IMG/VR virus record: IMGVR_UViG_3300037483_000173
Strand: one strand, 5' to 3'
Length of the DNA stretch: 41,934 nt
Origin: a virus
Shown: positions 15,006 through 35,049 of the stretch, piece by piece
Numbering within the stretch: position 1 is the first letter of the stretch
Layout: each line of letters opens with the position of its first letter
Made by a program: the position numbers and the translations under genes
The notes under the pieces: model-generated
What the model was told of the DNA's origin: nothing
What the model saw: the letters and a program-made list of their open reading frames with translations, nothing else
Databases searched by the model: none

Positions 15006-15056
15006 TAACTCAACGGTAAGGGGCAGGCCCTGACCGATACCAAGGGGAACGACGAA

Positions 15057-15490: not shown

Positions 15491-15509
15491 CGATTGGAGG
15501 TAAGCGGCG

Positions 15510-15737: not shown

Positions 15738-15788
15738 CCGTTGAACACTGGACTATACGGACTGTGCAAAGTCGTGGATTGAGGATCA

Positions 15789-16091
15789 ATGACTTATAGG
15801 GTAAACAAAAAGGCAAGGAAGTTGTGGTCCGAACAGGCTAACGCCAAAAAAGAGCGCTTGCGCATGCAGCGTAGCGAGCGTGACCCGCTTGTTGACCTCG
15901 ATCCATATCTCAAAATAACAGTGGAGCGGAAGGCAACAGGAGAGATCGCTGTGTTCGAGTGCTTTGAAGGCGACAGGATCGACAACTACCGCGTCTACTG
16001 CAATGACGCGTTCCAGGGCGTGCAGAGCATAAGCACGATAACCAAGAATCTTCGCAAAGCACTGCCGAGATTCCGTAGGATGGACGAATGA
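15789..16091 (+). CDS. Hypothetical protein
   Basis: 100-aa ORF with GAGGA RBS. ATGA coupling to the polymerase gene. Confidence 0.55.
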   Translation: MTYRVNKKARKLWSEQANAKKERLRMQRSERDPLVDLDPYLKITVERKATGEIAVFECFEGDRIDNYRVYCNDAFQGVQSISTITKNLRKALPRFRRMDE

Positions 16092-17224: not shown

Positions 17225-17236
17225 AGGAGGATGGAG

Positions 17237-17758: not shown

Positions 17759-19578
17759 AACTCGTCGTCTCAGACCTCTCCAACATCGAAGGCCGGGTAC
17801 TCGCGTACCTGGCCGGCGAAGAGTGGAAGCTGGAAGCGTTCCGCGCCTATGACCGTGGTGAAGGGCCGGACCTGTACAACATCACGGCCACCAGCATCAT
17901 CGGCGGTGACCCGTGGGCGGTGGAGAAGGCCAACCGCAATGCCTTTGGTAAAGTGCCCGATCTAGCGTGCCTCGGCCCTGAAACCCAAGTGTTGACGGAT
18001 TCTGGATATAAGGCTATCGTGGCGGTGTCTGAGACCGATAAACTATGGGATGGTGACGAATGGGTGGGCCACGCAGGATTAATAGATCGCGGTGTCCGGA
18101 AGGTTGTACGTGTGGACGGCATCGTGGTAACACCGGATCATTTCATCTTAACCGGGAAAATATGGAAGCAGGCGAGGCTACTCGCTTCAAACGCAAACGA
18201 CCTCCGCCGAGCATTGGGACGCGGTTCGGAGAACTTACCGTCGTCGGCTACCAATACGGTCCCGCGGGGGGCCTACGCGGCATCATCGTTGGCTGTGATT
18301 GCGGAGCGGAACCACATGCTGTCGCACAAAGCAATTTGCTATCTGGGCGAACCACGCGGTGTAACAAATGCGCGAAAGCCGCATCAAATCGTTGGCGTAA
18401 GAATTACTACGGCTACGCGGATATTGTCCCAGATGAGGCACATCGTAGACGGCTGCTCAATCGGGTTGCGGCGTGTATTAACCGCTGTCGGAATCCACGG
18501 GACGCATCCTACGCCAACTACGGCGGACGAGGGATACACGTATTTACGGAGTGGGAGACCGACCGGCGGGCATTCCTCAGATACCTCGTTACTCTGGATG
18601 GGTGGGACCAACCGGAACTTGAACTCGACCGGATCGATGTTAATCGTGGGTATGAGCCGGGAAATCTCCGGTTCATTACCAGACGCGAAAATCGCCGGAA
18701 CCAACGAACCGTCCGCGATCTCCAGCAACACATCGCCGATCTTGAGCAGCGTCTACGACATTGCACATGCGGGGCCGCGGAGTCGATTCACAATCCGGAC
18801 GAATAACGGACACCTCATCGTTCACAACTGCGGGTACGGAGGTGGTGTCGGCGCCTTCCGCACATTCGCCAAAGCCTACCGCATCACCATGGAGGAGCAC
18901 TGGCCCACCATCCGACAGAACATCGCCGCACCGCTCATCGAGCAGGCCCGGCAGAACCTCGAGAAGTGGGGCCGTCCGCAGCTGGCGGATCTGGAAATCA
19001 GTGAACTGGAATGGGTGGCGAGCGAATCAGTGAAGCTGGCCTGGCGGGCAAGGCACCCGGCCACCCGCAAGCTGTGGTACGACTGCGAGAACGCTGCCCG
19101 CAACGCACTGCGCACCCCGAACACGACGTTCAACGCAGGGCGGCATCTGAAGTTCCGATTCGTTGAGCACGTCAGTGGCAATTGGCTGCTGGTGCGCCTG
19201 CCCAGCGGCAAGTTCCTGACGTACTTCGATCCACGTCTGACCTCCGACGATAGCATCTCCTATCTCGGATACGGGCAAGAGGGCGAGGCCACTGCGCGGG
19301 TATGGTCTCGACAGTACACATACGGCGGAAAAATCGTTGAAAATTCGGCCCAGGCGTTGGCCGGGGACGTACTGAAAGCCAACATGCCGCGCATTGAGGA
19401 AGCCGGGTATGAAATCGTACTCACCGTCCACGATGAAGCCGTCACCCAGGCCCCCGACACCGACGAGTACAACGCGGAGAAGTTGAGCGCGTTGCTGGCG
19501 GTAGCGCCGGAATGGGCGCCCGGCCTGCCGCTGGCGGCGGCTGGGTTTGAAAGTTACCGATATAAAAAGGAGGATTAA
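17755..19578 (+). CDS. Family A DNA polymerase, C-terminal fragment (motifs A-C) interrupted by a 287-aa intein
   Basis: It starts at ..VVSDLSNIEGRVLA (motif A-like). Later motifs include the ..GYGGGVGAF.. segment and ..VLTVHDEAV (motif C-like). The exteins are 17755-17967 and 18829-19578. Confidence 0.85.
   Translation: MKLVVSDLSNIEGRVLAYLAGEEWKLEAFRAYDRGEGPDLYNITATSIIGGDPWAVEKANRNAFGKVPDLACLGPETQVLTDSGYKAIVAVSETDKLWDGDEWVGHAGLIDRGVRKVVRVDGIVVTPDHFILTGKIWKQARLLASNANDLRRALGRGSENLPSSATNTVPRGAYAASSLAVIAERNHMLSHKAICYLGEPRGVTNARKPHQIVGVRITTATRILSQMRHIVDGCSIGLRRVLTAVGIHGTHPTPTTADEGYTYLRSGRPTGGHSSDTSLLWMGGTNRNLNSTGSMLIVGMSREISGSLPDAKIAGTNEPSAISSNTSPILSSVYDIAHAGPRSRFTIRTNNGHLIVHNCGYGGGVGAFRTFAKAYRITMEEHWPTIRQNIAAPLIEQARQNLEKWGRPQLADLEISELEWVASESVKLAWRARHPATRKLWYDCENAARNALRTPNTTFNAGRHLKFRFVEHVSGNWLLVRLPSGKFLTYFDPRLTSDDSISYLGYGQEGEATARVWSRQYTYGGKIVENSAQALAGDVLKANMPRIEEAGYEIVLTVHDEAVTQAPDTDEYNAEKLSALLAVAPEWAPGLPLAAAGFESYRYKKED
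17968..18828 (+). mobile_element. Intein inserted in the conserved GKV..LA|LGYGGG segment
   Basis: Cys1 with block A CLGPETQVLTDSG, block B TPDHFILT, block F VYDIAHAG..F and block G GHLIVHN, followed by a +1 Cys (CGYGGG). Confidence 0.8.
18162..18806 (+). CDS. HNH-type homing-endonuclease homologue nested in the intein but in a different reading frame
   Basis: This frame encodes FGELTVVGY..CDCG..V....L.SGRT.RC.KC...YANYGGRGI.V..EW........LDRIDVNRGYEPGNLRFITRRENRRNQ. That pattern is typical of free-standing phage HNH endonucleases. It is offset from the polymerase/intein frame. Confidence 0.65.
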   Translation: MEAGEATRFKRKRPPPSIGTRFGELTVVGYQYGPAGGLRGIIVGCDCGAEPHAVAQSNLLSGRTTRCNKCAKAASNRWRKNYYGYADIVPDEAHRRRLLNRVAACINRCRNPRDASYANYGGRGIHVFTEWETDRRAFLRYLVTLDGWDQPELELDRIDVNRGYEPGNLRFITRRENRRNQRTVRDLQQHIADLEQRLRHCTCGAAESIHNPDE

Positions 19579-21635: not shown

Positions 21636-22042
21636 TCCTTCCGCATCACGTCCGTTACTTTCGGCACGAGCTTCTCCGCACTACGCCCGACGACATACCC
21701 GCCGAGGCCGATCTGCAACAGGGTCCATGCTTCCGCGGCGAGGGGGCTGGCCAGCCAGCCGAAGGAATCACACACAACGAGAGCGAGGAAGGTCAACATA
21801 GTGATCGGCCGCCACGATCTCTGCATCCAGGACGCACCCTGCGCTTCAGCCTGGATGATTTCCGCCTTGGCCTTGAGAAGCGATTGCTCATATTGCAGGA
21901 CTTGAGCCGATAGCTCCGCCTGCATTCGGAACAGCTCGTTCTTCACTGCGAGTCGTTCTTCCTCGGAGGTGTGCAGATTGTCTATCAAATCCGCAGCGGG
22001 TTTGAACACCTGCCCGATCAGTCCGAATAGTTGCCCTATCAT
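21632..22042 (-). CDS. Holin (the 3-TM holin family seen with GTAs and phages)
   Basis: I place the start at ATG 22042. DNLHTSEEERL and RSWRPITMLTFLALVV match my recollection of that family. It lies just after the endolysin gene. Confidence 0.65.
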   Translation of the reverse strand: MIGQLFGLIGQVFKPAADLIDNLHTSEEERLAVKNELFRMQAELSAQVLQYEQSLLKAKAEIIQAEAQGASWMQRSWRPITMLTFLALVVCDSFGWLASPLAAEAWTLLQIGLGGYVVGRSAEKLVPKVTDVMRKD

Positions 22043-22043
22043 G

Positions 22044-22460
22044 TCAGTCCTCCAGCATAACCGCCACTTCCGCAGCGCGTTCCGGTGTCTGTTTCGCCCA
22101 ATTGCTATCGAGCGCCTGCCTGTGCGCGTCCGCGCCATCCCCACGCTCCAGTGCGGCCAACATCTTGCGGAAGCGCAGCAAGCCGTTCACCCCAAGCTGA
22201 AAGGCCATGTTGCACAGCGCCTGTTGCTGCCGGTCGGAGAGATGGCTCCAGTACGGCAATTGCCCCGCGAGGGATTGGACGACTTTGGCGATATCGTTGT
22301 CCAGCAGATAGTCGATCTCATCATCAGACAGCCCGCCACCACGCCGCGCATCGATGAGCCGCCCAACACCGATGGTCCAGTATCCGAGATGGTCCTGGTA
22401 CGCGGACCGCTTGCAACCCTCATGCCGGATGAGCTGTTCACGTAGCGCCTGTGTGTTCAT
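22044..22460 (-). CDS. Endolysin, glycoside hydrolase 24 (T4 lysozyme-like)
   Basis: I place the start at ATG 22460. It carries the HEGCKRSAYQDHLGYWTIGVG catalytic-region signature. Confidence 0.85.
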   Translation of the reverse strand: MNTQALREQLIRHEGCKRSAYQDHLGYWTIGVGRLIDARRGGGLSDDEIDYLLDNDIAKVVQSLAGQLPYWSHLSDRQQQALCNMAFQLGVNGLLRFRKMLAALERGDGADAHRQALDSNWAKQTPERAAEVAVMLED

Positions 22461-22689
22461 TGCGGATACCTCGCCTGTCCATAAACACATGCTCCTCAAC
22501 CCGTGTCACCCTCCGGTCAAGGATTCCGATTTTACCATGCAAATCCGTCTCAATGTTGTGCATTGTTCGCGCCATGTCATCTAGTTTTCCGTAGACCTTG
22601 TTCCCTATCCATCCGAGGATTACGACGAGCAACCCGAAGAACGTGGCCACGAGGGAAAGCAAGATTGTGATGATTTGCGTTTCGTTCAT
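22438..22689 (-). CDS. Single-TM membrane protein of the lysis cassette (holin/antiholin-like)
   Basis: I place the start at ATG 22689. The TM helix is IITILLSLVATFFGLLVVILGWI, followed by a coiled-coil tail. The segment has low GC. Confidence 0.5.
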   Translation of the reverse strand: MNETQIITILLSLVATFFGLLVVILGWIGNKVYGKLDDMARTMHNIETDLHGKIGILDRRVTRVEEHVFMDRRGIRNEHTGAT

Positions 22690-22841
22690 TCTACATCGTC
22701 CATATTGTTTATTATCTGGCCATACTATCAGAAAATAATTGACATTTCTTGCGCTGTCGTTGTTGACATTATTCAGCTCCTTTATTGAGCCATTCCGTGT
22801 AATAGGTAAAGCCCTCACTACCTATCATATTGTATAAATAA

Positions 22842-22884
22842 GAAAAATCCCCCAACCAATTAAGGAAGGGGGGATTCTTTTAAT
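22842..22884 (-). terminator. Rho-independent terminator downstream of the tailspike gene
   Basis: aatccccc / gggggatt stem with T-runs on both strands. Confidence 0.6.
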
Positions 22885-22894
22885 CAGTTCTTGG

Positions 22895-25030
22895 CTATGT
22901 TTGCGCCCCAACCACTGTCCCATCCGTATCGCTGGTTGGTGCAGTTGCTTTAATACGAAAAACGCCGGTACTGTCTACCCAAAAATGATACGACCCGATC
23001 ATAAGGTGCTCTCCATCCCACGCGCTACTGGTAACTTGGAATATACCATCTGCATCTCTAATTTTAGCCGCTGTGACGTTATTACTGCTCCTGAGAAGTA
23101 AATCAGTCCCCGCCACAGCTTTTAGCCTGTTTGTAGTTACAGGACTCCCGGCTTGAACGGCGACACCACAGTTCACTTTCAGAACTGATGCTGTAATATC
23201 AATGGCATTTGATGAACCTACATTCAAATCTTGTTTAAAAACACCTGCCCCAGATATTTCCGCGCCAGATGTTTCATATAATCCACCTGAAATATAGGCA
23301 GTACCAGCGTTTGACACCAGCCCCTCTTGCTGACCCCCGCCTTTAATATTCCCAACTATGACCAATGAGCCAGAATCTACCTTTATCCCCTCTCTTCCGC
23401 TTGTGCTTGTGCCTCCAGCATAATGAGGATTAATATCAACCATCTCGAACTGAGCAAAACTAACATCGCCCCCTGTTGTGCTAGACCTGATGTGAAATGC
23501 TGGAGACTCAAAACCGCACGCTGTTACAGTGCTATTATTCACCTTTAACCTATCAACGCCTCCACAATCGATTATCTTTGAGGATTTTTGTGCGGTTGTG
23601 AAGGTGTAAGGGCTTCCGTCCTTTGCAGGGACTATGCCGTGAAACATGCAGTTATCGAAGTTTATTGCTTTTATGGTCTCGAGGTTTGTGGTTGTGTTTA
23701 TCTTATCAAACGAAAAGTGGTCTCCAAGCGCATAGATTGAAAACACATTTTCAAAATAAATATTGTTACTTGACCTATCAGAATCCCCATCGATAAGAAT
23801 TCTGAACTGGGGGTTTCCACTGTCTGCATCGCCGCAATATCTTGTCCATACGTTTCTGAATGTCCCTTCCCGCAATGAATCAGACGCTTTAAGCACTCCG
23901 TTTTTAATAGCAACAAACGAGCAGTTCTCGACAAGAAGATTGTCAAGCATAGATGTTACGAGTGCGGTTGCGGATATCGTGCGCTCCTGCCCGTCAAAAG
24001 AAATACCAGAGAATGACACGCCATATAGGCGACCTTCCCTATCCTTTACTGTATCGGCTGAGATATCGAAAATAGAAGTGGATGCGGGCGCTACAATGAG
24101 CTTCGTGGTGTAGTCCATATAATCGTGGTCTACCTCAGATGAAACAGTTTCTCCAACAATCTTGATTGGGGTATTTACAGCTATATCCCCAAAAACCCAC
24201 TGCCCTCCTGGAAAATGCAGATAATTAGACGCATTGACGGCAGCCTGTACTTCTGAACTACTGTCAGTCACACCATCACTAACAGCCCCAAACCACCGGA
24301 CATTAACCGCTCCACCATATTCCGCCACCCACGCACTACTCCCATCCCCGCCAACAGGAACAGCAACGGTGCCGCCATTCTCGGTGTAGGTGCCGGAAGC
24401 TGCGCCAGTGACGCCACGAAATACCAGTGCGCCGCCGTCACCTTCGGTGGTGTGTGCTTTGCGGTAGATTCGCGAGCCATTTACTATGGTTGTGGCGCGC
24501 AGTTCGGCGTGTGTTTTCACGGACCGGATGGCGGATTCCAATGGCACGCCCGAGTAGGTGCCCTCCGAGACCACGATAAGGCCTTCAGAGTCGAAAGCCA
24601 GATACTTAGACGCCCTATCCGCCAATTCCGGGAGCACGATGTCCGTGGCGGTATCGGTGTCCGATAGCCGCACCACGCGGTCTGTTCGGTCGGCCAATCG
24701 CTGGGCGATCATAGTCAGTTTATCGAATGCCTGCTCGCGGGTCTCGGCTGGATTGCTGTCGTTCTCCACCAGGTCGAGCAGTTGGGTTAGCGCCGGATCT
24801 CGAATGATTACGACATTACCGGTGCCCGTGGAGGGTGGCGTGACGAACGTTACTGTGCCGCCGCCTGCGACACCGGCACCGGCTACCGTGTAGTGCGTGG
24901 TGATGGTCTGCAACGTGCCATCCACATACACGGCCAGGTCGGCATCTACTAGGAAGTACGGCGTGGCGAACTCATCGGTCGTGCCGTTGCCGTTGTAGGT
25001 CTTGCGGGTTTCAACTGTACTTACGGTCAT
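22895..25030 (-). CDS. Tailspike or tail fiber with a pectate-lyase-like beta-helix (putative depolymerase)
   Basis: 711 aa. The conserved N-terminal adaptor begins TYNGNGTTDEFATPYF. VNVRWFGAVSDGVTDSSSEVQAAVNA resembles the start of a pectate-lyase-superfamily domain. Confidence 0.75.
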   Translation of the reverse strand: MTVSTVETRKTYNGNGTTDEFATPYFLVDADLAVYVDGTLQTITTHYTVAGAGVAGGGTVTFVTPPSTGTGNVVIIRDPALTQLLDLVENDSNPAETREQAFDKLTMIAQRLADRTDRVVRLSDTDTATDIVLPELADRASKYLAFDSEGLIVVSEGTYSGVPLESAIRSVKTHAELRATTIVNGSRIYRKAHTTEGDGGALVFRGVTGAASGTYTENGGTVAVPVGGDGSSAWVAEYGGAVNVRWFGAVSDGVTDSSSEVQAAVNASNYLHFPGGQWVFGDIAVNTPIKIVGETVSSEVDHDYMDYTTKLIVAPASTSIFDISADTVKDREGRLYGVSFSGISFDGQERTISATALVTSMLDNLLVENCSFVAIKNGVLKASDSLREGTFRNVWTRYCGDADSGNPQFRILIDGDSDRSSNNIYFENVFSIYALGDHFSFDKINTTTNLETIKAINFDNCMFHGIVPAKDGSPYTFTTAQKSSKIIDCGGVDRLKVNNSTVTACGFESPAFHIRSSTTGGDVSFAQFEMVDINPHYAGGTSTSGREGIKVDSGSLVIVGNIKGGGQQEGLVSNAGTAYISGGLYETSGAEISGAGVFKQDLNVGSSNAIDITASVLKVNCGVAVQAGSPVTTNRLKAVAGTDLLLRSSNNVTAAKIRDADGIFQVTSSAWDGEHLMIGSYHFWVDSTGVFRIKATAPTSDTDGTVVGAQT

Positions 25031-25042: not shown

Positions 25043-27541
25043 TTATTGATTCATGGCAGAGGTGGGCGGCAGCCACCACGCTACGTTCCTATCACGTTCC
25101 ACCTGCCGCTGATAGCGACGGAGGTATCCCGGATTGACTTGTTCCTGCAGTGCATGGAGGAACATGTGGTCCATCGCCAGCCGTGCGCCGAACAGGTTGT
25201 TGTACGGTACGAGCCCGATACCCAGCTTCAGTGCCTTGGCGCTTGGGTCTTCGCCCTTGGCTGCGGCGGCCATTACGCCGAACGCCTGGGACGCTTTGCC
25301 GAAGGCGGGGCCAGCCAGTGTAGCCAAGGGGTCGGTCCCGGTACGGGATAGTGTACCAAACAAGAAGTCCCCGTACAGGCCCGCGCCACCGCCCTGCATG
25401 AACGCCCCGCCAATCATCTGCGCCACATCCCACGCATCTTCCGGCTCTTTCGGCTTTTCCCCCCGGCCATATTGCTTGGCCGTCATCGAGACGAAACCCA
25501 GCGCCGTGGTGGCCGCCAGCATGTGGGCCAGCCCCATCTTATCTACCTGCCCCGCACGATGCAGCTCGCGGTTCCAGTGCTTGGTAATAAAGGTCAGAGG
25601 GAATTGTTTGAACTGCATGAACAGCGCCATCAGTTCCCCGGCCACGGTGCCGCGCTCCAGCCCGAAGCGGAGCATGGCCCGCTCCTTGGCCCCCCCGAAG
25701 GTCAGCGCCTCGCGCACTTGGTCGGAGTAGTAGGTGCCCAGCTTGGTGGCGAGGTCTTCACGGGCACGGGCTATCTGGCCTGCGGTAGCCTCCGTCTTGC
25801 CCATGTAATCCAGCACCGCGGCATCGGGCAGTTCCCGCACCAGCTCCGGCATGAGCATGGGTGCGCCATCGGCATCGAATATCTCCGACTGGCGCAGCAC
25901 GTTCCACTCGCGTTCAGTAATGCCGTATCGCTTCAGCGTGGTTTGCAGCAGCGGGGACATTTCAGCGAAGCTCTTGCCCGAGGTGGCCAGGTCACCAAGG
26001 TTACCGGCCAGGGTGATGCCGGTGGCCCGCGCCCAGCCATCCGTCCACGCGGTCAGCAGGGTGATCTTGAAGAAGCGGTTGTTGGCCTTGACCATAACAC
26101 CGTGGGCGCTGTCCGTAGCGTGGAATCGCTGGAACACGCCGCCGATGAAGCCGGTGGTCCCGGCATTCAGCAGTCGGGCCGCCTTGGCCTTATCTGCGGG
26201 GTTCTGCAGCGCGGAGAACACCCGGCCGGTGGTCTCCCCCCATGTTTCGGGTAGTGAGACCCCGTTATGGCGAAGCACGGCTGCCCGGATACCTATGTCC
26301 GGGAATGCAGACCAGGTAACCCCGCCCAGCGTGGCCATGTTCAGTGCAGACCGGACGGACCCGAACCACATGGCCAGCGTTGGGTTGCCACGCACCTGGA
26401 TGCCCCCACCTATCTCATCGAACTCGGCACGGACTTTACGGCCCTCCGTAAGCTCTCGAGCCGTATCCACGTCGCCCCGGGCTTTGGCCCGCTGGGTGAG
26501 CCGTTTCAGGTCGGCATTGAACGCCGCTTCCGGGTTCGGCCCGTAGACCCGCATCAGTGCGGTATTACGAGCGGCATATTCCAGTCCGTCCAGCACCGAC
26601 TCGAACAGGGACTTTTTACCAAATTCGTTGTTGTATTCCAGCCATGCGTTGGGGTCTTTGAAGTGCAGCACGCGCTCGGCACTGGCCCGCTTGGCCAGGC
26701 TCCCCGGACCGGTGAAGCCGCCGAGCCAGTCCGAAGACCCATTGGCTTTCTCATGGACTCCGCTGGCGAGATCGAACCATACGTTGTCCAGGAATTCATC
26801 CACGTTCTTCACGCCATCGAATGTCTGGTCGTGTAGCAGCGGGCGGACTTTCTCTTTCCAGGTCTCTTTCCCGGCGCGGTAGATGGAGATTTGATCGTGC
26901 GCCTGCCGGCTGATATACCCCTTCAGCTTGCGGATGGCAGCGCCAGACTGGTTCTGGAGATGGCGCCCGCGCTCGGTATACCGGTTGAATATCTCCGCCA
27001 TCTTGGCCGCGTGCTTGTCCCCGGTCGGTTTAATGCCGGTGTCGCCGTTCAGGCGGGCCATCTCATTGGCCACTTTCGCCTCGAATTCCTTATTCTTCAG
27101 CAGGGCCACGTCGCCAAGCCCCGCTTCGTCCAGCTCCTGCAGCATAGGGCCGATGAGCACCGAGTCCTTAATGCCGTGCATCTGGGCATCGACACTCAGG
27201 CCCGCGCCTTCTATGTTGCCCTCCATGCCCACGTTACGGGCGCGGATCACAAAGTCCTCCTTGGCCCCGCCGGCGAACATGGCCTGCTCCTGCTTGAGCC
27301 GTTGCTGCAGGGCGTACACGCGGAAGGCCCGTTGCCGCTTGGCCTGCAGCGTGGCGAGTTTCTTCTCCAGCGCCAGGGCAGCCCCGGCCTTCTGGAGGGC
27401 ATCGCCCCGTGCCAGTGCCGGGTCCTCACGTTGCAGGCGGGTGGCTTTGATATCCAGTAGGTCAAGGATTTCTTCGAGTTGGCGGTCGGTGAGGTCTTCA
27501 CCTACCAGCTTCGCCGCATTGAGGCAGTCTTGATTCGCCAT
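25043..27541 (-). CDS. Large internal virion / ejection protein (putative, assigned by position)
   Basis: 832-aa ORF in the gp15/gp16-equivalent position. I recognise no catalytic motif. Confidence 0.5.
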   Translation of the reverse strand: MANQDCLNAAKLVGEDLTDRQLEEILDLLDIKATRLQREDPALARGDALQKAGAALALEKKLATLQAKRQRAFRVYALQQRLKQEQAMFAGGAKEDFVIRARNVGMEGNIEGAGLSVDAQMHGIKDSVLIGPMLQELDEAGLGDVALLKNKEFEAKVANEMARLNGDTGIKPTGDKHAAKMAEIFNRYTERGRHLQNQSGAAIRKLKGYISRQAHDQISIYRAGKETWKEKVRPLLHDQTFDGVKNVDEFLDNVWFDLASGVHEKANGSSDWLGGFTGPGSLAKRASAERVLHFKDPNAWLEYNNEFGKKSLFESVLDGLEYAARNTALMRVYGPNPEAAFNADLKRLTQRAKARGDVDTARELTEGRKVRAEFDEIGGGIQVRGNPTLAMWFGSVRSALNMATLGGVTWSAFPDIGIRAAVLRHNGVSLPETWGETTGRVFSALQNPADKAKAARLLNAGTTGFIGGVFQRFHATDSAHGVMVKANNRFFKITLLTAWTDGWARATGITLAGNLGDLATSGKSFAEMSPLLQTTLKRYGITEREWNVLRQSEIFDADGAPMLMPELVRELPDAAVLDYMGKTEATAGQIARAREDLATKLGTYYSDQVREALTFGGAKERAMLRFGLERGTVAGELMALFMQFKQFPLTFITKHWNRELHRAGQVDKMGLAHMLAATTALGFVSMTAKQYGRGEKPKEPEDAWDVAQMIGGAFMQGGGAGLYGDFLFGTLSRTGTDPLATLAGPAFGKASQAFGVMAAAAKGEDPSAKALKLGIGLVPYNNLFGARLAMDHMFLHALQEQVNPGYLRRYQRQVERDRNVAWWLPPTSAMNQ

Positions 27542-27543
27542 CG

Positions 27544-29445
27544 CTATCTCCCGGTCAGGCAGTTGGCCGCCTGTTTGACAGCGTTCTCATAGGCCACCTG
27601 CTCCGCCTCCATGGCTTCGATATCTTTGGCGGTGGGGGTGCCTTCTTCCGGTTCGGCATCGAAGGTGGCGATATCCTCGTCCGACAATCTGGAATCGATA
27701 TCCGCCAGGTCTTCTTCGGCCGCACGTATCTCGGCATCCAAATCCTTCGGGGCGCCCGGCTCCATCTTCGCCGCTTCCGCCGCTGAGTCCATCCCAGCGC
27801 GGATCTCCGGGGCTACATAGGGCTCGGCTTGCTGCTTGGCCCAGTCGGCTCCGGTTTTTGCGGTTGCACTGTTCGGCCTCGTATTTCCTGCAGCCTGGCC
27901 TCCAGAGCCAGTGATAGTGCCGTCGGATTGTTCTCCAAATGCTGCAGCCCTAGACGCTTCAACCTCTCGTGCGATGACATCGGCTGTCCTCAATTTCTTC
28001 TGTTCAACGACCGTATCGGCTTCGGATATGATGTCCGATAGGCTCCGGTCTGCATCAATGCGGGATACCCCCCACCCCCAACGGGTCCCGGGGGGTTTCT
28101 TCCCAGGTTCTTTAGCATGGGGCAGGTCCTGTATGCCATACCGGGCTTCCATATCGGCGGTCTTACGCGGCAAAGAAGATAGCGCCCGTTCCACGGCATC
28201 AGGCCCAGCACCTACGATTATAGCACTAACTTCATCCCCGCCATGGCGGATGGGAACGACCATGCCCCCGGACTCCTGCAGCGCGGACTCAAACATCTGG
28301 GCCATCTCGCGGTATAGCTTGTTTGCCCCGGAGTTACCAAAGCGGGCGTTTAAGCCGCCGAGATTGGCAATGTCCGCCTCCACGTATACGGATGGTTGCC
28401 CGGTGGCGCGGGTATGTTCTTGCGCTCGTTCAATGGTCGGGATGCGGTCTTCAGCGCGATAGAATCCGGTTACGGGGTCCCGCACATCCGCCGGCAACAA
28501 CGCCTTGGTCTGCTCCTGGGTGAGCCCGACCTCTTGCGCCTTGTCCATGAATTGCTGCTCACGCATCTCGTGGGGACGTAAGAAGCCACGCTTGCGCTCC
28601 AGGTCCTGGATGGCCTCTTCCACCACGGGCGCGATATCCACCGGGCGCCCTTCTTCGATCTGCTGCGCCGCGGATCCGATAACCGCGGCTCTGTGCTCCG
28701 CCGGCATCTCCTCGAAAGTCTGCTGGATTGGTGGCGCCACGGCGCGGCCGGCAAAGCGGTCTCCGATATACCCAGCGCCCAGATGCAATCCGCCCCCGAT
28801 CACAGAGCCGAAGGTGATGTTCATCAGGCTATCCGCCGCCGTATAGTCCGCGGATTCCCATTCTGCCCCGGCCAAGACCAGAGGCTCCAGGGCTGCGGCG
28901 CCAACGGCCCCCTCGACAGCGCCCGTGACAAGCCGGGACACCGCCGGTCCCGCTCCGGCGGCCAGCCGTATCTCGCCAAGCCCGACGAACATGGACCCGA
29001 GGTAGAGCGGATCGCGCAGGGTGGTTACCAGTCCAGCGAGTAGATCGGCGCCAATTCCCGCCGATGACCGCCGGCGAATATCCTGGCGGATCAACTCCTC
29101 CATATTCAGCCGGTGCAACTGCTCGGCCACCGGTTCCGGGGTATCGGCGTCGAAAGTCAGTTTCCCTTCGATACCGTATCTCTCATTGGCTTCTTGCGCG
29201 GTGAGGATCGTAGATGGCACCGCCGGCGCCGAAACGACCCAGTTTCCCTCGGCGTCGAAGTCTCCGTATCCTTCATACTGCTGGCGTTCGTGCCGATTGG
29301 CGAGAGTACGGGTCGGTGTCCGGGCCAACTGGTCCTCGAAGGAGGCGTCGTATCCTTCCCCCCAAGAGGCGGGCAGCACGTCGAGCCCCAGGGCATCCGC
29401 CCGGCGATTGCGATCATAATTGACTACGAAATCACTCATCGGCAC
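27544..29445 (-). CDS. Internal virion-module protein containing a GGDEF (diguanylate-cyclase fold) domain
   Basis: 633 aa. Residues ~322-484 read DPVTGFYR..VYVEADIANLGGLNARFGNSGANKLYREMA..IRHGGDEVSAII..GWGVSRI..SEADTVVEQKK. This is collinear with canonical GGDEF domains. Confidence 0.75.
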   Translation of the reverse strand: MPMSDFVVNYDRNRRADALGLDVLPASWGEGYDASFEDQLARTPTRTLANRHERQQYEGYGDFDAEGNWVVSAPAVPSTILTAQEANERYGIEGKLTFDADTPEPVAEQLHRLNMEELIRQDIRRRSSAGIGADLLAGLVTTLRDPLYLGSMFVGLGEIRLAAGAGPAVSRLVTGAVEGAVGAAALEPLVLAGAEWESADYTAADSLMNITFGSVIGGGLHLGAGYIGDRFAGRAVAPPIQQTFEEMPAEHRAAVIGSAAQQIEEGRPVDIAPVVEEAIQDLERKRGFLRPHEMREQQFMDKAQEVGLTQEQTKALLPADVRDPVTGFYRAEDRIPTIERAQEHTRATGQPSVYVEADIANLGGLNARFGNSGANKLYREMAQMFESALQESGGMVVPIRHGGDEVSAIIVGAGPDAVERALSSLPRKTADMEARYGIQDLPHAKEPGKKPPGTRWGWGVSRIDADRSLSDIISEADTVVEQKKLRTADVIAREVEASRAAAFGEQSDGTITGSGGQAAGNTRPNSATAKTGADWAKQQAEPYVAPEIRAGMDSAAEAAKMEPGAPKDLDAEIRAAEEDLADIDSRLSDEDIATFDAEPEEGTPTAKDIEAMEAEQVAYENAVKQAANCLTGR

Positions 29446-31564
29446 GATACCCCGTGGCCGGGAACGGGGTGCCGAGCCCCTGCAATTTGGATGGCGGATT
29501 CTTACGGATAGCGGCGAACTTCACTTCCCATTGCCTGCCGTCGGCCAGTAGCACAGGAGCGTAGGTGCCCGCCGCATCGGGAGCCATGCGTATAAGGCCA
29601 TCTCCCATTTGATTGTTGACCCAGAATCCTTGATTTACCGCGTTCTCGTATGCCGCCCGCTGGAGGTATCCATCGCGCTGCGATCCGGCGATGCGCGGGT
29701 CCATCATGCGCCCCGGGGATACCGGCATGAACATGTCCGGCCTTGCGACGGATACTTCGACGTCGGTAGCCCGTTCGACCATCCCCAACTCCCCTTTCGG
29801 AGCGCGGTACGTCTCGCCGAAGTCGTAGCGGTTCCCGAGATTGCGGTTAAACGCCTCTTGCGCGGCTTCGTTTGCCGAATATCCGCCCTGTAGATACAGC
29901 CCGTAAGCCGCGATAGACATGGCCTCGCGTTCCCGGCGAAGGATGGCTTGGCCCTCCCGTCCTGCATGCTGGATCGTCCGCCCGAATTCGCGCATGCGGT
30001 CGTCTATCTTGGAATCGATATCAGTGGCGGGCAGATTGCCTACATTGGTGCGCAGCGTCTGGCGGCCTTCCTGCATCCAACCGGCCAGCTGCTTGCGCCA
30101 CCCGGCATCTTCCTTGGTGTTCAAGCGGCCCAACACTAGCAAGCTCGGGGCCACCTTGGCATCCTCCAGTTCGCGCATGGCCAGCGGCCAGTCGGCGCCA
30201 TAGCGTTGCTGCAGTTGCTCCAGCTGATCGGCAGCCTGTTCGGCGCCAAGGCCGTTTAGGGACTGGGCTATCCGCGTAGCCGCCCCGGAGCCCATGACTT
30301 CCACCGCCCAGGCCGGGGTGCCCATGTCCGTCTGGAATTGCTTGAGCATGGACATGCCTTCCCGCAATCCATCCTCATCGCCGTTCGCCTCGGCTTTCCG
30401 CATCATCGCCGCGATGCCCGGATTCGCTCGATAGGTGTAGGCCACCTTGTCACGGCCATATTCCGTCCACTTCTCCTGTACCGCCCGCTCCAGTTCAGCT
30501 AAATTCTGCGCTTTGTACGCGGCCCCCAGCCCGGATACGGACTCCCGTGCCTGCTGCAGTGTTGCCCTGTCCGACACCAGCGAAGTGCTCGCCAGGCTCT
30601 GCTTGGTGGTGTAGAGCCGCTTGGCTTCTTCGACCTGCTGGATATCCCGCTCGGCCAGCTTGGCGTCCCCCTTACGGACTTCCAATGCGCGTTGCAGAGT
30701 GATCAGCCCGGAGTCTGCTTCCGGGCCATTCACGGCGATGGCGGCCAGTGTATCCGCAAAATCTTTCCCGTACAGCGCGGTGGACTCCACCTCCAGCGAC
30801 TTCTTGCGGTTCTCCAGGCGTGTCAACGCCGCATCGAACACCGATGGCTTCACCCGGTCACGAAAGCCGAATGCCCCGCCTTTAAGCGCCTTCACGGCGG
30901 CATCCACCTGCTCAATGGGCATGGGGGTCAATTCATACTGTGTCACCCAACCATCCAGGGCGCCGGCCAGTACCTGCCGTTCGCCTTCATCCCGGAACTT
31001 GGCCCGGGTCTGGTCGTCCGGCAGCGGGGCCATTTCAGCGAATTCCTGAAACCGCTGCAGGGTAGCGTCCATCTCGGCGGGATTGGCCCGGGCATAGTTG
31101 GTCATGCCATCGAGGGCTTCTCCGGCTCGGCGGGTATCCAGCGCCGCACGGGAGGCAGCCTGGAATTGCGCGGCATTTTGCAGGATGCGGCTGCGCATCT
31201 GCTCGGTGCGCATCTGGATGCGCCGCTGGGCTTCGTGGGTAGCGGGGGCGCGATTTAGCGCCTGAGGCACCCAGTTATCGAACTGCTCCTGCACGGCATC
31301 CGTGAAGCCGTCTGCACCTTCCGGCGCCTGCTGCTTGGCCTGCTCGAACGCCTCGAGTACCTGCTTCTCGTTCTCGATGGATTGAAGCTCGGCCTCGAAC
31401 ATCTCGCGCTTGCGGTGCACGTCGAAGGCTACGCCCGCAGCTTCGGTTACCGCGCCCCCTAGCCGCTGCACCCCAGCGCCGGCGGCCTCCGCGGACATGC
31501 GCGGCTGCTGCTGCTGCGGGCCGACTGGCCGAGTCTGGTATCCAATATCCGGGATGCGTGGCAT
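29432..31564 (-). CDS. Internal virion / ejection protein (putative, assigned by position)
   Basis: 710-aa ORF that is coiled-coil rich and lies in the structural block. Confidence 0.5.
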   Translation of the reverse strand: MPRIPDIGYQTRPVGPQQQQPRMSAEAAGAGVQRLGGAVTEAAGVAFDVHRKREMFEAELQSIENEKQVLEAFEQAKQQAPEGADGFTDAVQEQFDNWVPQALNRAPATHEAQRRIQMRTEQMRSRILQNAAQFQAASRAALDTRRAGEALDGMTNYARANPAEMDATLQRFQEFAEMAPLPDDQTRAKFRDEGERQVLAGALDGWVTQYELTPMPIEQVDAAVKALKGGAFGFRDRVKPSVFDAALTRLENRKKSLEVESTALYGKDFADTLAAIAVNGPEADSGLITLQRALEVRKGDAKLAERDIQQVEEAKRLYTTKQSLASTSLVSDRATLQQARESVSGLGAAYKAQNLAELERAVQEKWTEYGRDKVAYTYRANPGIAAMMRKAEANGDEDGLREGMSMLKQFQTDMGTPAWAVEVMGSGAATRIAQSLNGLGAEQAADQLEQLQQRYGADWPLAMRELEDAKVAPSLLVLGRLNTKEDAGWRKQLAGWMQEGRQTLRTNVGNLPATDIDSKIDDRMREFGRTIQHAGREGQAILRREREAMSIAAYGLYLQGGYSANEAAQEAFNRNLGNRYDFGETYRAPKGELGMVERATDVEVSVARPDMFMPVSPGRMMDPRIAGSQRDGYLQRAAYENAVNQGFWVNNQMGDGLIRMAPDAAGTYAPVLLADGRQWEVKFAAIRKNPPSKLQGLGTPFPATGYRADE

Positions 31565-32027: not shown

Positions 32028-32455
32028 CAGCCGAGCCTCGCGTACAGGGAGTAGTCCCGCCCATCAGCGCCATATTGGCGCATACATGGGGCCTCCATGC
32101 GGAAACCGAGCGCCCGAAGCCAACGATGCCCCGCCCCGAAACCAGCGCCCACTACCGCCTCCACCCGGCGGAACAATCCGGCGTCCAGGATGCGGCGGGC
32201 GGCATTATGCAGCGCGAGAAAATCCCGGCGGCTAGTGGCGTCCAGTACCGCCCATGCCTCCGCCCGGCCGGGCCAGTATTCGACAAGTCCGCCACAAGCC
32301 ACCACCCGCCCGCCAACAGTGGCGGTATAACTGTGTGGTAGCGTGGCCAGTGTACGCAGCATCTCCGGGGTCAGTAGCGGCCGCAGATGCGCGGTAGCCT
32401 CCTGTTCCTGGATGCGGTCCAGATGCTCCGGCTGGAATGGTATCAAGTCGATCAT
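32027..32455 (-). CDS. GNAT-family acetyltransferase inside the structural module
   Basis: I place the start at ATG 32455, overlapping the upstream TGA (ATGA). 142 aa with a GNAT-like core. Confidence 0.6.
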   Translation of the reverse strand: MIDLIPFQPEHLDRIQEQEATAHLRPLLTPEMLRTLATLPHSYTATVGGRVVACGGLVEYWPGRAEAWAVLDATSRRDFLALHNAARRILDAGLFRRVEAVVGAGFGAGHRWLRALGFRMEAPCMRQYGADGRDYSLYARLG

Positions 32456-35049
32456 CCTCGATCCTGTGTCACAAGCTGCGGCATGAGCGCCAAGAGCGTG
32501 CCGGGGAGTGGCTGCCGCTGCAACCAGCAAAATTGATTCTCTGTGTCGTAATTGCCATCCACATTTGCCCGAAGGATACCAGAAAACAGTTCCGGCGGTG
32601 CATCGTCGATATCCGCGGAGGTACGGAAGGTGATTTCGTCCAGATGGTCGAAGTCCATCCCGATCTTCATGCCGAGGGTTCGGTGCAGAAGCATGGCCAT
32701 CTGGTGCATACGCCTGGTCTTGCCCAAGGCCGTGCCATCCCGCGCCCCCGCCTCCAGGCGAAGTATCTGCCCTTTGCTGTCGTAAGCGTAGCCGATATGC
32801 ACCCTCGAGGCTTCATAGCCCAACGTCACCGCACCACTAGCTACCGTGACATCTGGGTGTACCGCGCCATCCGCCAGCACTGCCAGCGTCTCGCCCTCCA
32901 GGTGGTCGAGCCCGGCGAAGGAATCCGTGGCGGGGCCACTATAGGACAAGCCGCAATCGACAAAATACGCATCCTCCTGGCCCATCAGGTCGTCGAACAG
33001 CTGCGTGATATATTCCACATAACGCACGTAGGCCCCATTGACCCATCGGCGCACCAGAAGCCACACATCCTCCCGAGAGCCGTCTGGAGAGGGTATCACC
33101 GCTACGCTCTCCACGGTCGGCGGGCCCCCCGCCGCGTCCCCGTCGCCGCCAAGCACGTGCCTGTGCCAGCCAACGCGCAGTGAATCCGTATCCCGTTCAT
33201 AGGTCATGGCCACCAGAGCGCCGTCGGTGCGTACCGCCCACACCAGCGACTGCGGCTCTTTTTGGTGGGCGATTTCCCGCAGCCCGCTCCCGGTTATGTG
33301 TTCGGCCAAGAGCGTAAGGTCCGGGGAGTCGAATCCGTCATCCTGGATGAAGTACCGTAGCTCCCGCAGCTTGCGGCCGGACCGCTGCACGTACAGCGCC
33401 GCTTTGCCGGCGGAGATGGCCTGCGTGTCATTGCTGCCGTAGGAGGTCGATTTCTTGGCGGAGATATTCGTCGGGGATAGCGCCTCGCCAAGGGAGGACG
33501 GTCGCACGACCCACTCCCCGCCGGAGGTGCCCACCATGAGCCCGCGTTCATCCGCCCGCATCCATCGGATCGCATTCACCGTATTCGAGTTCAGGGTGAA
33601 TGACACCGCATTGGCGTCCGTTACCGTACCATCCTCCTCGGTTGGGGAGAAGCTGGTGTAGTCACCTGATTCACTGCCATCGATGCGCTGCGGTGCGGCA
33701 GCCGACCCCGAGAACATCAGGCGGTCTTCATGGAATAGGACATTGGTGGGGTATCCCGTAGTATCCGACCATAACCCCAGCCGCCAGTCACTGGTCGCTA
33801 TTGTATTGCCGAAATTGGTGCCTACCGTAGCGGACACCACGGTAGCGGACGTGTAGGTGGCAATCGTAGCCCAGCCCCATTGGAATACACTGGTGGATAC
33901 GTACTCCCACGCTACGGTGTTGTCGGTGATCGCCGCGCTGGTTCCGGTAGGCCCGCCGGAGCCAGCGGAGGTCCCGGCAGTCGTACACCGGTAAACCCGC
34001 CCGCTGTCGTTCTGCACCACGTCCCCCACCGCGTAAGCGGTACTCGCGGCCCAGTCCTGTATCAGATGCAAGATTCGTATCGGGCGCCCCACGTCGGTGC
34101 TGGCGAAAGTAGCCGCGGAGGCGGTAAGAGTCACCGTCCCCGAAGTCCCGCTCGATGAGATCGTAGTGGCCGTGGCGTTTATGGACAGGTATGGGCCATC
34201 CAGAAAATCGATAGTATCCAGTGTCCAATCCACATGACTGGTGCGGGATAACGTTCGCGGCGCATAGTCCGGATGCACCAGGTAAAGCACGTCTGCCGAT
34301 TGGACATAACGCAATTGCGCTAGATCGCTCTCGGAATATGGCGTTACCACCTCTACCGCCGTAGCCCCCTCTGAGACTTGCAGAGATATCGCATCTACAT
34401 ATGCGTATCCGGCGGAAGGCACCAAACTCGTGAAGGATAGGTATACCGTTCCAGCAGTCGGCGTAATCGCGACGGTGTGCCTCCCCGCGGAGTATACCGC
34501 ATCCAATATGCCCCCCGTCGTGGAAGTGGTGCCGCAGCGGACCCGTACGTCGTTGACATATGTTGTGAACGTGAGGGTGTGGATGTCCCCCACCGCGGAT
34601 ATCGATACTGCCTGCTCCGCTATGCCCGGTACAGTGCCGTTGCCCTGTACGACCGCCGCTTGTAATGAGGAGGTCCATCCCACAAACCCACTGATTGTGC
34701 CCCAATCGGAGATATCGGTATCGAAGTCGCCATTGGAGATAAGCTCTGGGGCGCCCGTTACCGGGACGTAATCCTTGAATATCCGGATGGTCTGGGGGCC
34801 GAACTCGAGCATATACGCCTGCTCGACCGAAAACTCGAAGGGGATCAACCGGGCGGCACTAGCGGAATCCCCGACTTCGGCCACGAAATAGGTCCCCGGT
34901 CGGCGGGTCAACCCGCCCTGGATGGTTGGGATGTAGTTCTGGCAGAGGGCGAGGCCGGTGGTATACCGTTCAGTATCGACGCGCCCATACAACAAAGGCG
35001 AGAATTCCCCGCCATTGAAGTTGGATTGTAAGGGGGATACTTTGGCCAC
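32452..35049 (-). CDS. Tail tubular protein B (T7 gp12-like nozzle) with an inserted jelly-roll-like domain
   Basis: 865 aa. The N-terminus is SNFNGGEFSPLLYGRVDTERY...GGLTRRPGTYFV, as I recall for gp12-like proteins. Confidence 0.65.
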   Translation of the reverse strand: MAKVSPLQSNFNGGEFSPLLYGRVDTERYTTGLALCQNYIPTIQGGLTRRPGTYFVAEVGDSASAARLIPFEFSVEQAYMLEFGPQTIRIFKDYVPVTGAPELISNGDFDTDISDWGTISGFVGWTSSLQAAVVQGNGTVPGIAEQAVSISAVGDIHTLTFTTYVNDVRVRCGTTSTTGGILDAVYSAGRHTVAITPTAGTVYLSFTSLVPSAGYAYVDAISLQVSEGATAVEVVTPYSESDLAQLRYVQSADVLYLVHPDYAPRTLSRTSHVDWTLDTIDFLDGPYLSINATATTISSSGTSGTVTLTASAATFASTDVGRPIRILHLIQDWAASTAYAVGDVVQNDSGRVYRCTTAGTSAGSGGPTGTSAAITDNTVAWEYVSTSVFQWGWATIATYTSATVVSATVGTNFGNTIATSDWRLGLWSDTTGYPTNVLFHEDRLMFSGSAAAPQRIDGSESGDYTSFSPTEEDGTVTDANAVSFTLNSNTVNAIRWMRADERGLMVGTSGGEWVVRPSSLGEALSPTNISAKKSTSYGSNDTQAISAGKAALYVQRSGRKLRELRYFIQDDGFDSPDLTLLAEHITGSGLREIAHQKEPQSLVWAVRTDGALVAMTYERDTDSLRVGWHRHVLGGDGDAAGGPPTVESVAVIPSPDGSREDVWLLVRRWVNGAYVRYVEYITQLFDDLMGQEDAYFVDCGLSYSGPATDSFAGLDHLEGETLAVLADGAVHPDVTVASGAVTLGYEASRVHIGYAYDSKGQILRLEAGARDGTALGKTRRMHQMAMLLHRTLGMKIGMDFDHLDEITFRTSADIDDAPPELFSGILRANVDGNYDTENQFCWLQRQPLPGTLLALMPQLVTQDRG

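Follow-up and report, generated by a model that had tools for sequence, protein, structure and literature searches.

IMG/VR record IMGVR_UViG_3300037483_000173, a viral DNA of 41,934 nucleotides (nt) analysed here over its full length (the window), encodes on its minus strand a protein of 633 amino acids (aa) in which a divergent GGDEF domain is set between the N-terminal scaffold and the acidic C-terminal tail of a podoviral internal virion protein. Residues ∼321–486 almost certainly form a GGDEF fold, the protein is very probably an internal virion (ejection) protein, and its conserved residues make it probable that the domain is catalytically active; the case that the domain acts after injection is evenly balanced. 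The composite reading, in which a divergent GGDEF cyclase injected as part of an ejection protein makes a (cyclic) dinucleotide at infection, is accordingly put forward at even chances. The usual view of ejection proteins in short-tailed phages is that they build channels and bear at most a cell-wall enzyme; if the composite reading is true, the phage would rewrite host signalling with a pre-made second-messenger synthase before any gene expression.

A first-pass annotation made from the letters alone had described residues ∼322–484 (nt 27994–28482) as collinear with canonical GGDEF domains, and profile searches bear this out: Pfam PF00990 matches residues 323–486 at the Pfam threshold (24.3 bits against a gathering cutoff of 23.8; E = 2.9e-5), in a collinear alignment spanning profile positions 4–157 of 161, and the four blocks singled out (DPVTGFYR, EADIANLGGLNARFGNSGANKLY, IRHGGDEVSAII and SEADTVVEQKK) are all present in the translation. 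The NCBIfam model TIGR00254 matches with 25.5 bits, under its cutoff of 37.4. Searched as a single sequence against the Protein Data Bank (PDB) with phmmer, the domain has weak top matches (E ∼2e-3), all of them GGDEF structures, and FimX is among its best PDB matches by sequence and fold. A profile built from ten homologous domains retrieves 50 solved GGDEF structures, including PleD over residues 288–449 (E = 1.7e-11) and, as the best match, DosC (E = 1.9e-15, a value inflated by the canonical-like members P0006 and P0010 within the profile); a profile of the divergent subfamily alone matches solved GGDEF structures exclusively, at E = 1.7e-6.

Structure prediction gives the same assignment. 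AlphaFold2 models residues ∼290–486 of the full-length protein at a predicted local distance difference test score (pLDDT) of 80–90, and the domain alone at a mean pLDDT of 87.5 with a predicted template modelling score of 0.83. Foldseek searches of the PDB with the full-length and domain models return top 50 matches that are all GGDEF proteins or diguanylate cyclases (E down to 1.8e-10), with template modelling (TM) scores of 0.75–0.79 when normalised on isolated domains and a root-mean-square deviation of 3.1 Å to WspR (9t28). The predicted fold superposes on PleD, WspR and DosC, and is unchanged relative to canonical GGDEFs, including the substrate-binding helices. The domain is preceded by linker helices at residues 291–306 and 310–315, modelled at pLDDT ∼80, and the stalk-plus-GGDEF structures SiaD and DgcB are among the best fold matches.

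Eleven homologs, 28–98% identical overall, were aligned (alignment A1), and subfamily-wide residue counts were taken from 25 copies from phages, giant proteins and bacteria. In A1, D358, N366, G403, D404 and E405 do not vary, and R400 and K484 hardly do, in homologs as low as 40% identity; conservation of this kind among homologs 40–58% identical overall indicates that the catalytic residues are under selection. Aligned to DosC and PleD, D358 is the metal-binding Asp, N366 the base-contacting Asn (PleD N335), R400-x-G-G-D-E the catalytic hairpin and K484 the Lys of the A-D...A-K helix. The acidic set of an active cyclase, both acids of the GGDEV hairpin (residues 402–406, nt 28228–28242) plus D358, is therefore present. 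The alignments also agree with the earlier reading that D358 and D404–E405 are kept, that the signature Phe is replaced by Val and the Lys of F-K by Gly, that the guanine-specifying Asp is Asn375, and that there is no RxxD I-site upstream of the motif, where residues 393–396 are G-G-M-V and homologs have E-A-G-G or similar. Across the 25 copies, the metal Asp is found in 23, the base-contacting Asn in all, the hairpin Arg in 24, GGDE in 22–25 and the equivalent of K484 in 22; GGEE occurs in no intact copy, and the last residue of the motif is more often aliphatic (V/I/L) than Phe.

Three basic residues of PleD, K332, K442 and R446, contact phosphate, and K332 and R446 are important in that enzyme. 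K442 has its equivalent in Lys484; the K332 position is occupied by Gly in 23 of 25 copies and by Ser in the other 2, and the R446 position is variable, with Arg absent from the 633-aa protein. In addition, the subfamily carries an insertion of ∼12 residues with the motif D-I/L-P-H-x-K (His and Lys each in 24/25), absent from the canonical-like P0006 and P0010 and gapped relative to DosC. The inserted H443 and K445 might compensate for the lost phosphate-contacting residues; neither this insertion nor the absent R446 Arg figured in the first-pass annotation.

Altered specificity is suggested by a second set of positions. Of the guanine recognition pair, Asn is retained (N366) and Asp replaced (Asn375), leaving the canonical pair incomplete; the specificity position is Asn in 22 of 25 copies and Asp in 3. 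The role of this position (PleD D344, GacA Ser348) in product specificity has been described (PMC6456294), and natural GGDEFs with Ser/Thr there carry GGDE[F/Y] exclusively (Hallberg et al. 2019, PMC6456294). Relative to this Hypr combination, the 633-aa protein has the GGDE part, and Asn in place of Ser/Thr; the restriction of the subfamily to GGDE, together with a mostly non-Asp specificity residue, fits the pattern described for the Ser/Thr variants. Asn375 could, chemically, pair with the Watson–Crick face of guanine or of adenine. Because of the Asp-to-Asn change, the loop Lys-to-Gly change and the conserved His-x-Lys insertion, the product may be other than cyclic di-GMP (c-di-GMP).

The protein that carries the domain is assigned to the ejection block because its gene lies in the stretch bounded by the nozzle and tail fibre genes, which also encodes a gp14-like protein. 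The N-terminal scaffold matches phrog_3003 (E = 8e-26) and phrog_342, ‘internal virion protein with endolysin domain’ (E = 2.9e-9), and the first ∼250 residues align by hhalign with Pseudomonas phage Ab31 ORF15 (E = 2e-44) and with Pelagibacter phage HTVC024P gp46, a ‘putative internal virion protein’ (E = 5e-40), both encoded at the corresponding point of a matching gene order. Conservation within the scaffold peaks at residues 125–235, a stretch rich in Gly and Ala (G+A 35%), with invariant columns in alignments A2 and A6. No classical transmembrane helix is found in the scaffold, where the maximum 19-residue Kyte–Doolittle hydropathy (KD19) of 1.41 lies under the usual threshold; the Gly/Ala-rich region is just moderately hydrophobic and gives no guide to topology after ejection. 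The true start of the ORF (open reading frame) is probably the ATG at 29439, giving 631 aa, because the homolog P0001 (98% identical, 631 aa) begins at MSDF. This ATG overlaps the stop codon of the preceding, upstream gene, and gene junctions are tight or overlapping, the next gene beginning 2 nt past the stop of the 633-aa ORF.

Within this family, the middle of the protein behaves as a cargo slot. About ten proteins in the protein database share the whole architecture including GGDEF and ∼20 share the N-terminal ∼42% alone, and an alignment of both kinds shows conservation at the N-terminal end and in the acidic C-terminal tail, with a variable stretch between them. Metagenomic contigs with a GGDEF middle (P0009, L001) and without one (P0018, L003) have identical synteny: the order nozzle, two small internal proteins, a ∼700-aa protein, the scaffold gene, a ∼830-aa protein and fibre is kept in relatives with and without GGDEF, and the same block order is found in the cultured phages Ab31 and HTVC024P. 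The slot holds a more canonical GGDEF in P0006 (F-K lysine present, no His-x-Lys insertion), a ddrB-like ParB domain followed by the GGDEF variant in P0175 and P0214, a weak, sub-threshold GNAT signal in P0013, and coiled-coil-like filler only in many other members; among 27 IMG/VR scaffold loci, one carries a GGDEF domain. These distributions indicate that GGDEF has entered the slot more than once, with which a neighbour-joining tree agrees, although, lacking support values, the tree is suggestive only. The GC content at third codon positions is 0.63 in the GGDEF part and 0.72 in the N-terminal scaffold, weak evidence that fits a mosaic origin.

Slot-equivalent proteins of other phages vary in their relation to this scaffold. 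Ab31 ORF15 (L005 7229–8968) and YA3 ORF16 (L008 3600–5522) have in common a 150-aa middle module at 40% identity but not their N-termini, which are unrelated, so mosaicism of the slot extends to cultured phages. No homology to the scaffold is detectable in phiV10 p19, the equivalent of epsilon15 gp16, and the slot-equivalent proteins of MW202898 and RpY1 are not homologous to it. In locus L057, an SLT lytic transglycosylase is present in the internal protein upstream; a domain of this kind, at the N-terminus, is the enzymatic hallmark of T7 gp16 (PMC8954989).

The GGDEF variant extends well beyond the scaffold. Scanning public genomes and viral contigs with family-specific patterns located its signature, VTGFY / YVEADIANLGGLN / A-N / RxGGDE / DIPHxK, inside proteins of 3,000 to >7,000 aa from IMG/VR contigs and from Variovorax, Nocardia and Pseudomonas genomes; two viral giants contain InPase, ART-PolyVal, PBECR5 and LPD1/5/23/38/39, the families that define the polyvalent proteins (Iyer et al. 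2017, PMC5512222). Scanned exhaustively with HMMER, 1.84 billion cluster representatives yielded 332,725 matches at E≤1e-3 (GGDEFs at large), 15,598 at E≤1e-10 and 243 at E≤1e-30, the threshold taken to delimit this subfamily; judged by these profile scores, the variant is a distinct and rare subfamily (243 of 1.84 billion representatives). Among the best 150 of the 243, half (75) are giant proteins of at least 1,400 aa (median 2,352), 43 are shorter proteins with two tandem copies, 16 are other single-copy proteins of 400–1,400 aa, 9 have the podoviral scaffold, and 7 are small (<400 aa). Sampled giants carry LPD37, a RadC-like JAB domain or NUDIX. Two small members of ∼240 aa, P0045 and P0051 (locus L049 8001–8747), lie in ordinary-looking chromosomal neighbourhoods and have signal-peptide or lipobox-like N-termini (e.g. 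MIKTPMRTLFVFALLLGLWGC...). Bacterial loci with the domain were considered as prophages of this type and rejected, no structural-protein matches being found.

Relative to the polyvalent proteins, defined by at least two disparate domains, the 633-aa protein has one recognisable enzymatic domain plus scaffold; its scaffold relatives P0175 and P0214 carry two (ddrB-ParB and GGDEF), and the GGDEF domain of the 633-aa protein, encoded among virion genes, comes from the polyvalent repertoire. No segment of the other internal proteins of the window was found in the giant carriers. Searches of GenBank phages (50,697 records) by whole-protein tblastn, half-window megablast and tblastn with the polyvalent-type domain gave no match, so that no cultured carrier of the domain is available, and PLSDB plasmids hold no copy of the variant at tblastn sensitivity.

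Two recurrent associations of the subfamily bear on its chemistry. Tandem double copies are common: they occur at L010, L011, L013, L014, L015, L016 and P0019, in a 555-aa Nocardia protein and in 25 of the 75 giants, and one copy of the pair is often without catalytic residues (HMANLGG/GGKEL, GNGGRM, LEGPRL), an arrangement reminiscent of pseudo-heterodimeric class III cyclases. InPase (PF18823) stands directly upstream of the GGDEF variant in L021/22 (631–767 and 801–989) and L040 (641–790 and 823–1023), and a gene for InPase and DarA_N precedes the stand-alone copy P0034 (L051, genes 4388–7999 and 8001–8714). Tandem duplication and adjacency to InPase are both consistent with a reaction in which two nucleotides are joined and pyrophosphate is set free. 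Tandem copies, like the helical stalk ahead of the domain in the 633-aa protein, are also indirect signs of domain dimerisation. Candidates for the InPase–GGDEF pairing in cultured phages, Bacillus phage Dartukuta gp57 and Sinorhizobium phage PBC5 gp22, proved to have the InPase domain only.

Packaging and injection are suggested by context. Phage polyvalent proteins have been argued, from architectures and contexts, to be packaged and injected (Iyer et al. 2017, PMC5512222); GGDEF and InPase are named outright among their domains, GGDEF only in passing and as ‘not very widespread’. In an Ab31-like phage, the protein that occupies this slot, YA3 ORF16, has been found in purified virions (41 peptides, 27% coverage; PMC7326022 supplement); its N-terminus has no detectable homology to the scaffold, so the equivalence is positional only. 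Proteomics has detected the podovirus phi24B protein gp47 (LPD5, LPD1, LPD38 and MuF-C) in virions, and a role as an encapsidated ejection protein has been proposed for it (bioRxiv 10.64898/2026.04.10.717836); LPD5, LPD1 and LPD38 recur together in the GGDEF-bearing protein of L040. The 1,280-aa internal protein of MW202898.1 (L052 11018–14860), annotated ‘type I restriction enzyme methylase’, actually carries LPD38. LPD38 thereby links the large internal proteins of podoviruses with polyvalent proteins.

For the 633-aa protein itself, packaging, injection and enzymatic activity are inferred. It would be made late, together with the other internal proteins, packaged in the capsid, and would leave through the tail with the other ejection proteins as infection begins. 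If the cyclase then reaches cytoplasmic nucleoside triphosphates (NTPs), and oligomerisation of ejection proteins pairs two domains, two NTPs could be condensed into a (cyclic) dinucleotide. The reaction would be unrestrained, there being no sensory domain and, because there is no I-site, no product feedback, such that a few injected molecules could alter the second-messenger state of the host before phage genes are expressed. The target would probably be in the host, since no phage-encoded receiver was found: no PilZ, EAL or HD-GYP domain is present among the 33 other phage ORFs, and the phage has no Rfam match at E≤1, hence no recognised cyclic-dinucleotide riboswitch, and no tRNA. Immobilisation or reprogramming of the host, exclusion of rivals, or interference with nucleotide-based immunity are speculative benefits to the phage. 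A further, doubtful extension would make the subfamily a dedicated injected ‘first-strike’ effector whose non-c-di-GMP signal (an adenine-containing or mixed cyclic dinucleotide, or a linear product) jams, pre-empts or hijacks host signalling or immunity within seconds of DNA entry, and would make the scaffold a general delivery vehicle with GGDEF, ddrB-ParB and possibly GNAT as payloads; the Asn specificity residue, Gly-Gly loop and His-x-Lys insertion would permit such a product.

Several findings weigh against an injected, active cyclase. Support from single profiles is thin: the Pfam score is marginal and the NCBIfam cutoff is not reached, and the E-value of ∼1e-6 between the subfamily-only profile and solved GGDEFs means that the domain is remote from characterised enzymes. 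On the alignment, K332 and R446, both important in PleD, have no counterpart. Signal-peptide or lipobox-like starts of the small members are hard to reconcile with an NTP-dependent cytoplasmic enzyme. Most scaffold homologs are without the domain, which is therefore dispensable for ejection and accessory, and no phage-side receiver for a cyclic dinucleotide is evident. The virion presence of YA3 ORF16 concerns a positional equivalent and not a true homolog. Finally, there is no NTP in the periplasm. Parts of podoviral ejection proteins stay in that compartment (PMC8954989).

The alternative that survives best, though unlikely, is that the GGDEF fold is non-catalytic, serving as a nucleotide-binding or oligomerisation module, for example by coupling GTP sensing to a step of channel assembly or DNA entry, or by packing in the core. 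Degenerate, binding-only GGDEFs exist, with FimX among the best matches of this domain; the residues at the PleD K332 and R446 positions are gone, a degenerate copy is retained in many tandem pairs, and ejection proteins undergo the large conformational changes in which such a module might take part (PMC8954989). Binding alone, however, would not need the full catalytic set, which is kept in 22–25 of 25 copies across diverse carriers, and the association with a pyrophosphatase points to a reaction that releases pyrophosphate; nor is the domain part of the ejection mechanism, since most scaffold homologs function without it.

Somewhat less probable again is an active cyclase that acts late in the producing cell, its structural fusion giving only late and abundant expression. 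The gene lies within the late structural operon, with overlapping junctions, so the enzyme would be in the cytoplasm throughout the late period, and stand-alone phage GGDEF genes have been linked to host phenotypes such as hyper-biofilm formation in lysogens (PMC8471281). Against this, the domain is inserted between two conserved parts rather than appended, the subfamily is found above all alongside domains (ART, RNase, ddrB-ParB) for which a post-injection role is predicted, and second-messenger manipulation minutes before lysis brings no obvious gain.

Abandonment of nucleotide cyclisation by the subfamily, in favour of another substrate or of an NTP-free compartment such as the periplasm or cell envelope, is a long shot: the N-termini of P0045 and P0051, the loop Lys-to-Gly change with the new conserved His-x-Lys insertion, and the distance of the subfamily profile from all solved GGDEFs would accord with it, yet the base-contacting Asn (25/25) and the two-metal acidic residues are retained, the neighbouring domains are nucleotide-centred (InPase, NUDIX), and the predicted fold keeps its substrate-binding helices. 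Chance resemblance, or a decaying and functionless relic, is effectively refuted, as the marginal single-sequence scores (Pfam 24.3 against 23.8 bits; PDB phmmer E ∼2e-3) are set against collinear, full-length profile coverage, a high-confidence GGDEF fold model, catalytic residues invariant in homologs down to 40% identity and a coherent subfamily of 243 cluster representatives.

The injected-cyclase reading is only in part new. The first-pass annotation had treated cyclic-dinucleotide synthesis as a function not known to have been described for an ejection protein; GGDEF in a phage-injected protein is already published as a computational prediction (2017; PMC5512222), and stand-alone phage GGDEF genes are known. 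The literature searched contained no report of the domain in a podoviral ejection-protein scaffold, nor of the cargo-slot organisation, nor a definition of the altered active site of the subfamily or an experimental test of it. With ∼630 aa and one cargo domain, the protein offers a compact, tractable example of an otherwise unwieldy giant polyvalent class, and a rare GGDEF subfamily with altered active-site residues is defined; the conserved scaffold with a swappable middle suggests a natural protein-delivery chassis.

Table 1. Features of the 633-aa protein and of the surrounding ejection block, in window coordinates.
Feature	Position (nt)	Strand	Basis
633-aa internal virion protein gene, with GGDEF-variant cargo	27544..29445	minus	ORF, translation
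N-terminal scaffold (residues 1–280), common to podoviral internal virion proteins	28606..29445	minus	PHROG and hhalign
Gly/Ala-rich, moderately hydrophobic region (residues 125–235), most conserved scaffold part	28741..29073	minus	composition, invariant columns
Helical linker/stalk (residues 291–320) preceding the GGDEF domain	28486..28575	minus	model helices
GGDEF-fold domain (residues 321–486), cargo in the variable middle slot	27988..28485	minus	profiles and fold model
D-I-A-N-L-G-G-L-N (residues 358–366): Asp358, Gly-Gly phosphate loop replacing F-K, Asn366	28348..28374	minus	alignment
Asn375, guanine-specifying Asp position (PleD D344, GacA Ser348)	28321..28323	minus	alignment
R-H-G-G-D-E-V (residues 400–406), signature catalytic hairpin	28228..28248	minus	alignment
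D-L-P-H-A-K (residues 440–445), subfamily-specific insertion with His443 and Lys445	28111..28128	minus	alignment
Lys484, PleD K442 equivalent (phosphate-binding Lys, A-D-x-x-x-x-x-A-K)	27994..27996	minus	alignment to DosC
Acidic C-terminal tail (residues 540–633), ending A-A-x-C-x-x-R/G, invariant Cys629	27547..27828	minus	alignment with and without GGDEF
Nozzle / tail tubular protein B, upstream edge of ejection block	32452..35049	minus	Phage_nozzle E = 2.6e-7, phrog_376 E = 1.6e-214
Small acetyltransferase-like internal virion protein, ∼142 aa	32027..32455	minus	phrog_4177 and phrog_308, from residue ∼30
gp14-like small internal virion protein, 153 aa	31566..32027	minus	phrog_418 E = 2.3e-25; Pfam T7_gp14 E = 0.0049, sub-threshold
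710-aa internal virion protein, epsilon15 gp15 / Ab31 ORF14 position	29432..31564	minus	synteny
832-aa internal/virion structural protein, epsilon15 gp17 / phiV10 p20 / Ab31 ORF16 position	25043..27541	minus	phrog_684 E = 3.5e-165
Tail fibre / depolymerase, downstream edge of block	22895..25030	minus	PHROG tail families at N-terminus, weak pectate-lyase-like match

The window has identical ends (1–127 and 41808–41934), consistent with a circularly assembled, complete genome of ∼41.8 kb; the shared 127 bases may be an assembler k-mer overlap and not a biological terminal repeat. The phage is a podovirus equipped with a replication module of its own, comprising primase/helicase, exonuclease, interrupted DNA polymerase and SNF2-type helicase genes; among the genes scanned, none encodes a phage RNA polymerase. 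The minus strand carries, in order, terminase, portal, scaffold, capsid, tube A, nozzle, the ∼142-aa, 153-aa, 710-aa, 633-aa and 832-aa proteins, and tail fibre. By portal, the nearest records are the uncultured freshwater phage MW202898 (68%) and the Ralstonia phages RpY1, DU_RP_II and C22 (54%); Ralstonia and Stenotrophomonas are the hosts of the nearest relatives. The first-pass annotation had seen a T7-order module here; the placement of the gene in an internal-virion block between nozzle and fibre stands, and the module itself, with five internal proteins, is epsilon15/Ab31/RpY1-like and not strictly T7-like.

Around the 633-aa gene, assignments vary in strength. Residues 333–363 of the nozzle have a weak carbohydrate-binding module (CBM) 5/12 match (E = 7.4e-5, sub-threshold) within an insertion relative to phrog_376. 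The TTG at 32530 listed as the start of the ∼142-aa protein probably lies too far upstream; counterparts of the protein are 142–159 aa. The 710-aa protein has no Pfam or PHROG match and no recognisable domain. Cell-wall enzymes occur among its counterparts: Ab31 ORF14 is annotated as endolysin, RpY1_044 has Glyco_hydro_108, and the 944-aa protein of L057 has the SLT domain. The 832-aa protein has full-length tblastn matches, 28–31% identical, annotated as virion structural in phiV10, SPN1S and Ab31, and further matches in Pelagibacter, Vibrio and Liberibacter phages. GC content falls to 0.48 at 22001–24000, against ∼0.60 elsewhere, over the C-terminal, pectate-lyase-like half of the tail fibre gene, which suggests a recently exchanged receptor-binding or depolymerase module.

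Outside the structural module, the DNA polymerase is split on the plus strand (16088–19578) into an ORF for the exonuclease/N-terminal part (16088–17224) and an ORF (17755–19578) with an endonuclease-like segment (residues 90–380, phrog_93) followed by the C-terminal part of the polymerase, a 175-aa ORF (17231–17758) lying between the two pieces; the arrangement looks like a homing-endonuclease or intein-type interruption. In the early region, a 243-aa pentapeptide-repeat protein (4103–4834, plus strand; Pfam Pentapeptide E = 1.5e-72) has a counterpart in RpY1. Pentapeptide-repeat proteins can mimic DNA, and an anti-restriction or anti-gyrase-inhibitor function is possible. A C-5 cytosine DNA methyltransferase gene (13859–14914, plus strand) lies in a stretch of lower GC content (0.54 at 14001–16000).

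Among known systems, the closest are the polyvalent proteins (Iyer, Burroughs, Anand, de Souza & Aravind 2017, J Bacteriol, PMC5512222), with which the 633-aa protein shares the domain subfamily and the predicted package-and-inject logic; theirs are giant and multidomain, whereas the carrier in the window is ∼630 aa, with one enzymatic domain in a fixed slot of the ejection block. The available portion of that paper does not describe the active-site peculiarities or the tandem copies, or point out the InPase–GGDEF pairing. Stand-alone GGDEFs of Bordetella phages LK3 and CN1 and Bacillus phages G and SP-15, BFVD matches among them, are likewise phage-encoded instances of the fold, but are small and soluble, have genes away from the virion module, and are regarded as serving lysogenic conversion or host interaction; they fall outside this subfamily, because tblastn with the subfamily domain is empty across the GenBank phage records searched.

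As an enzyme, the domain resembles PleD, WspR, DosC and DgcZ in its fold, metal Asp, base-contacting Asn, RxGGDE hairpin and A-D...K helix, and differs from them in having Asn for the guanine-binding Asp, Gly-Gly for F-K and no R446 Arg; unlike canonical diguanylate cyclases, it has the ∼12-residue His-x-Lys insertion, and lacks an RxxD I-site and any sensory or receiver domain. With the Hypr cyclic GMP-AMP synthases GacA and Bd0367 (Hallberg et al. 2016/2019, PMC6456294), it has in common a non-Asp specificity residue and the GGDE motif, the residue being Asn and not Ser/Thr and the subfamily members not being receiver-domain signalling proteins.

As a virion component, the 633-aa protein is like T7 gp16 and phi24B gp47 in being a predicted internal capsid protein encoded between tail tube or nozzle and fibre that combines a catalytic module with channel-forming parts, and SLT, GH108 or LPD38 domains occur in neighbouring internal proteins of relatives; the only trace of homology to T7 is the weak, sub-threshold T7_gp14 match of the small protein, and phi24B gp47 is a polyvalent LPD5/LPD1/LPD38 protein with a MuF-C peptidase. 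The modules of T7 gp16 and phi24B gp47 attack the cell wall or process the protein itself, whereas a nucleotide cyclase would target cytoplasmic signalling. In delivering a pre-made enzyme with the genome, such a protein would join the T4 ADP-ribosyltransferase Alt, the N4 virion RNA polymerase and P1 DarB/DdrB (PMC5512222), while differing from all of them in chemistry, carrier and virion type.

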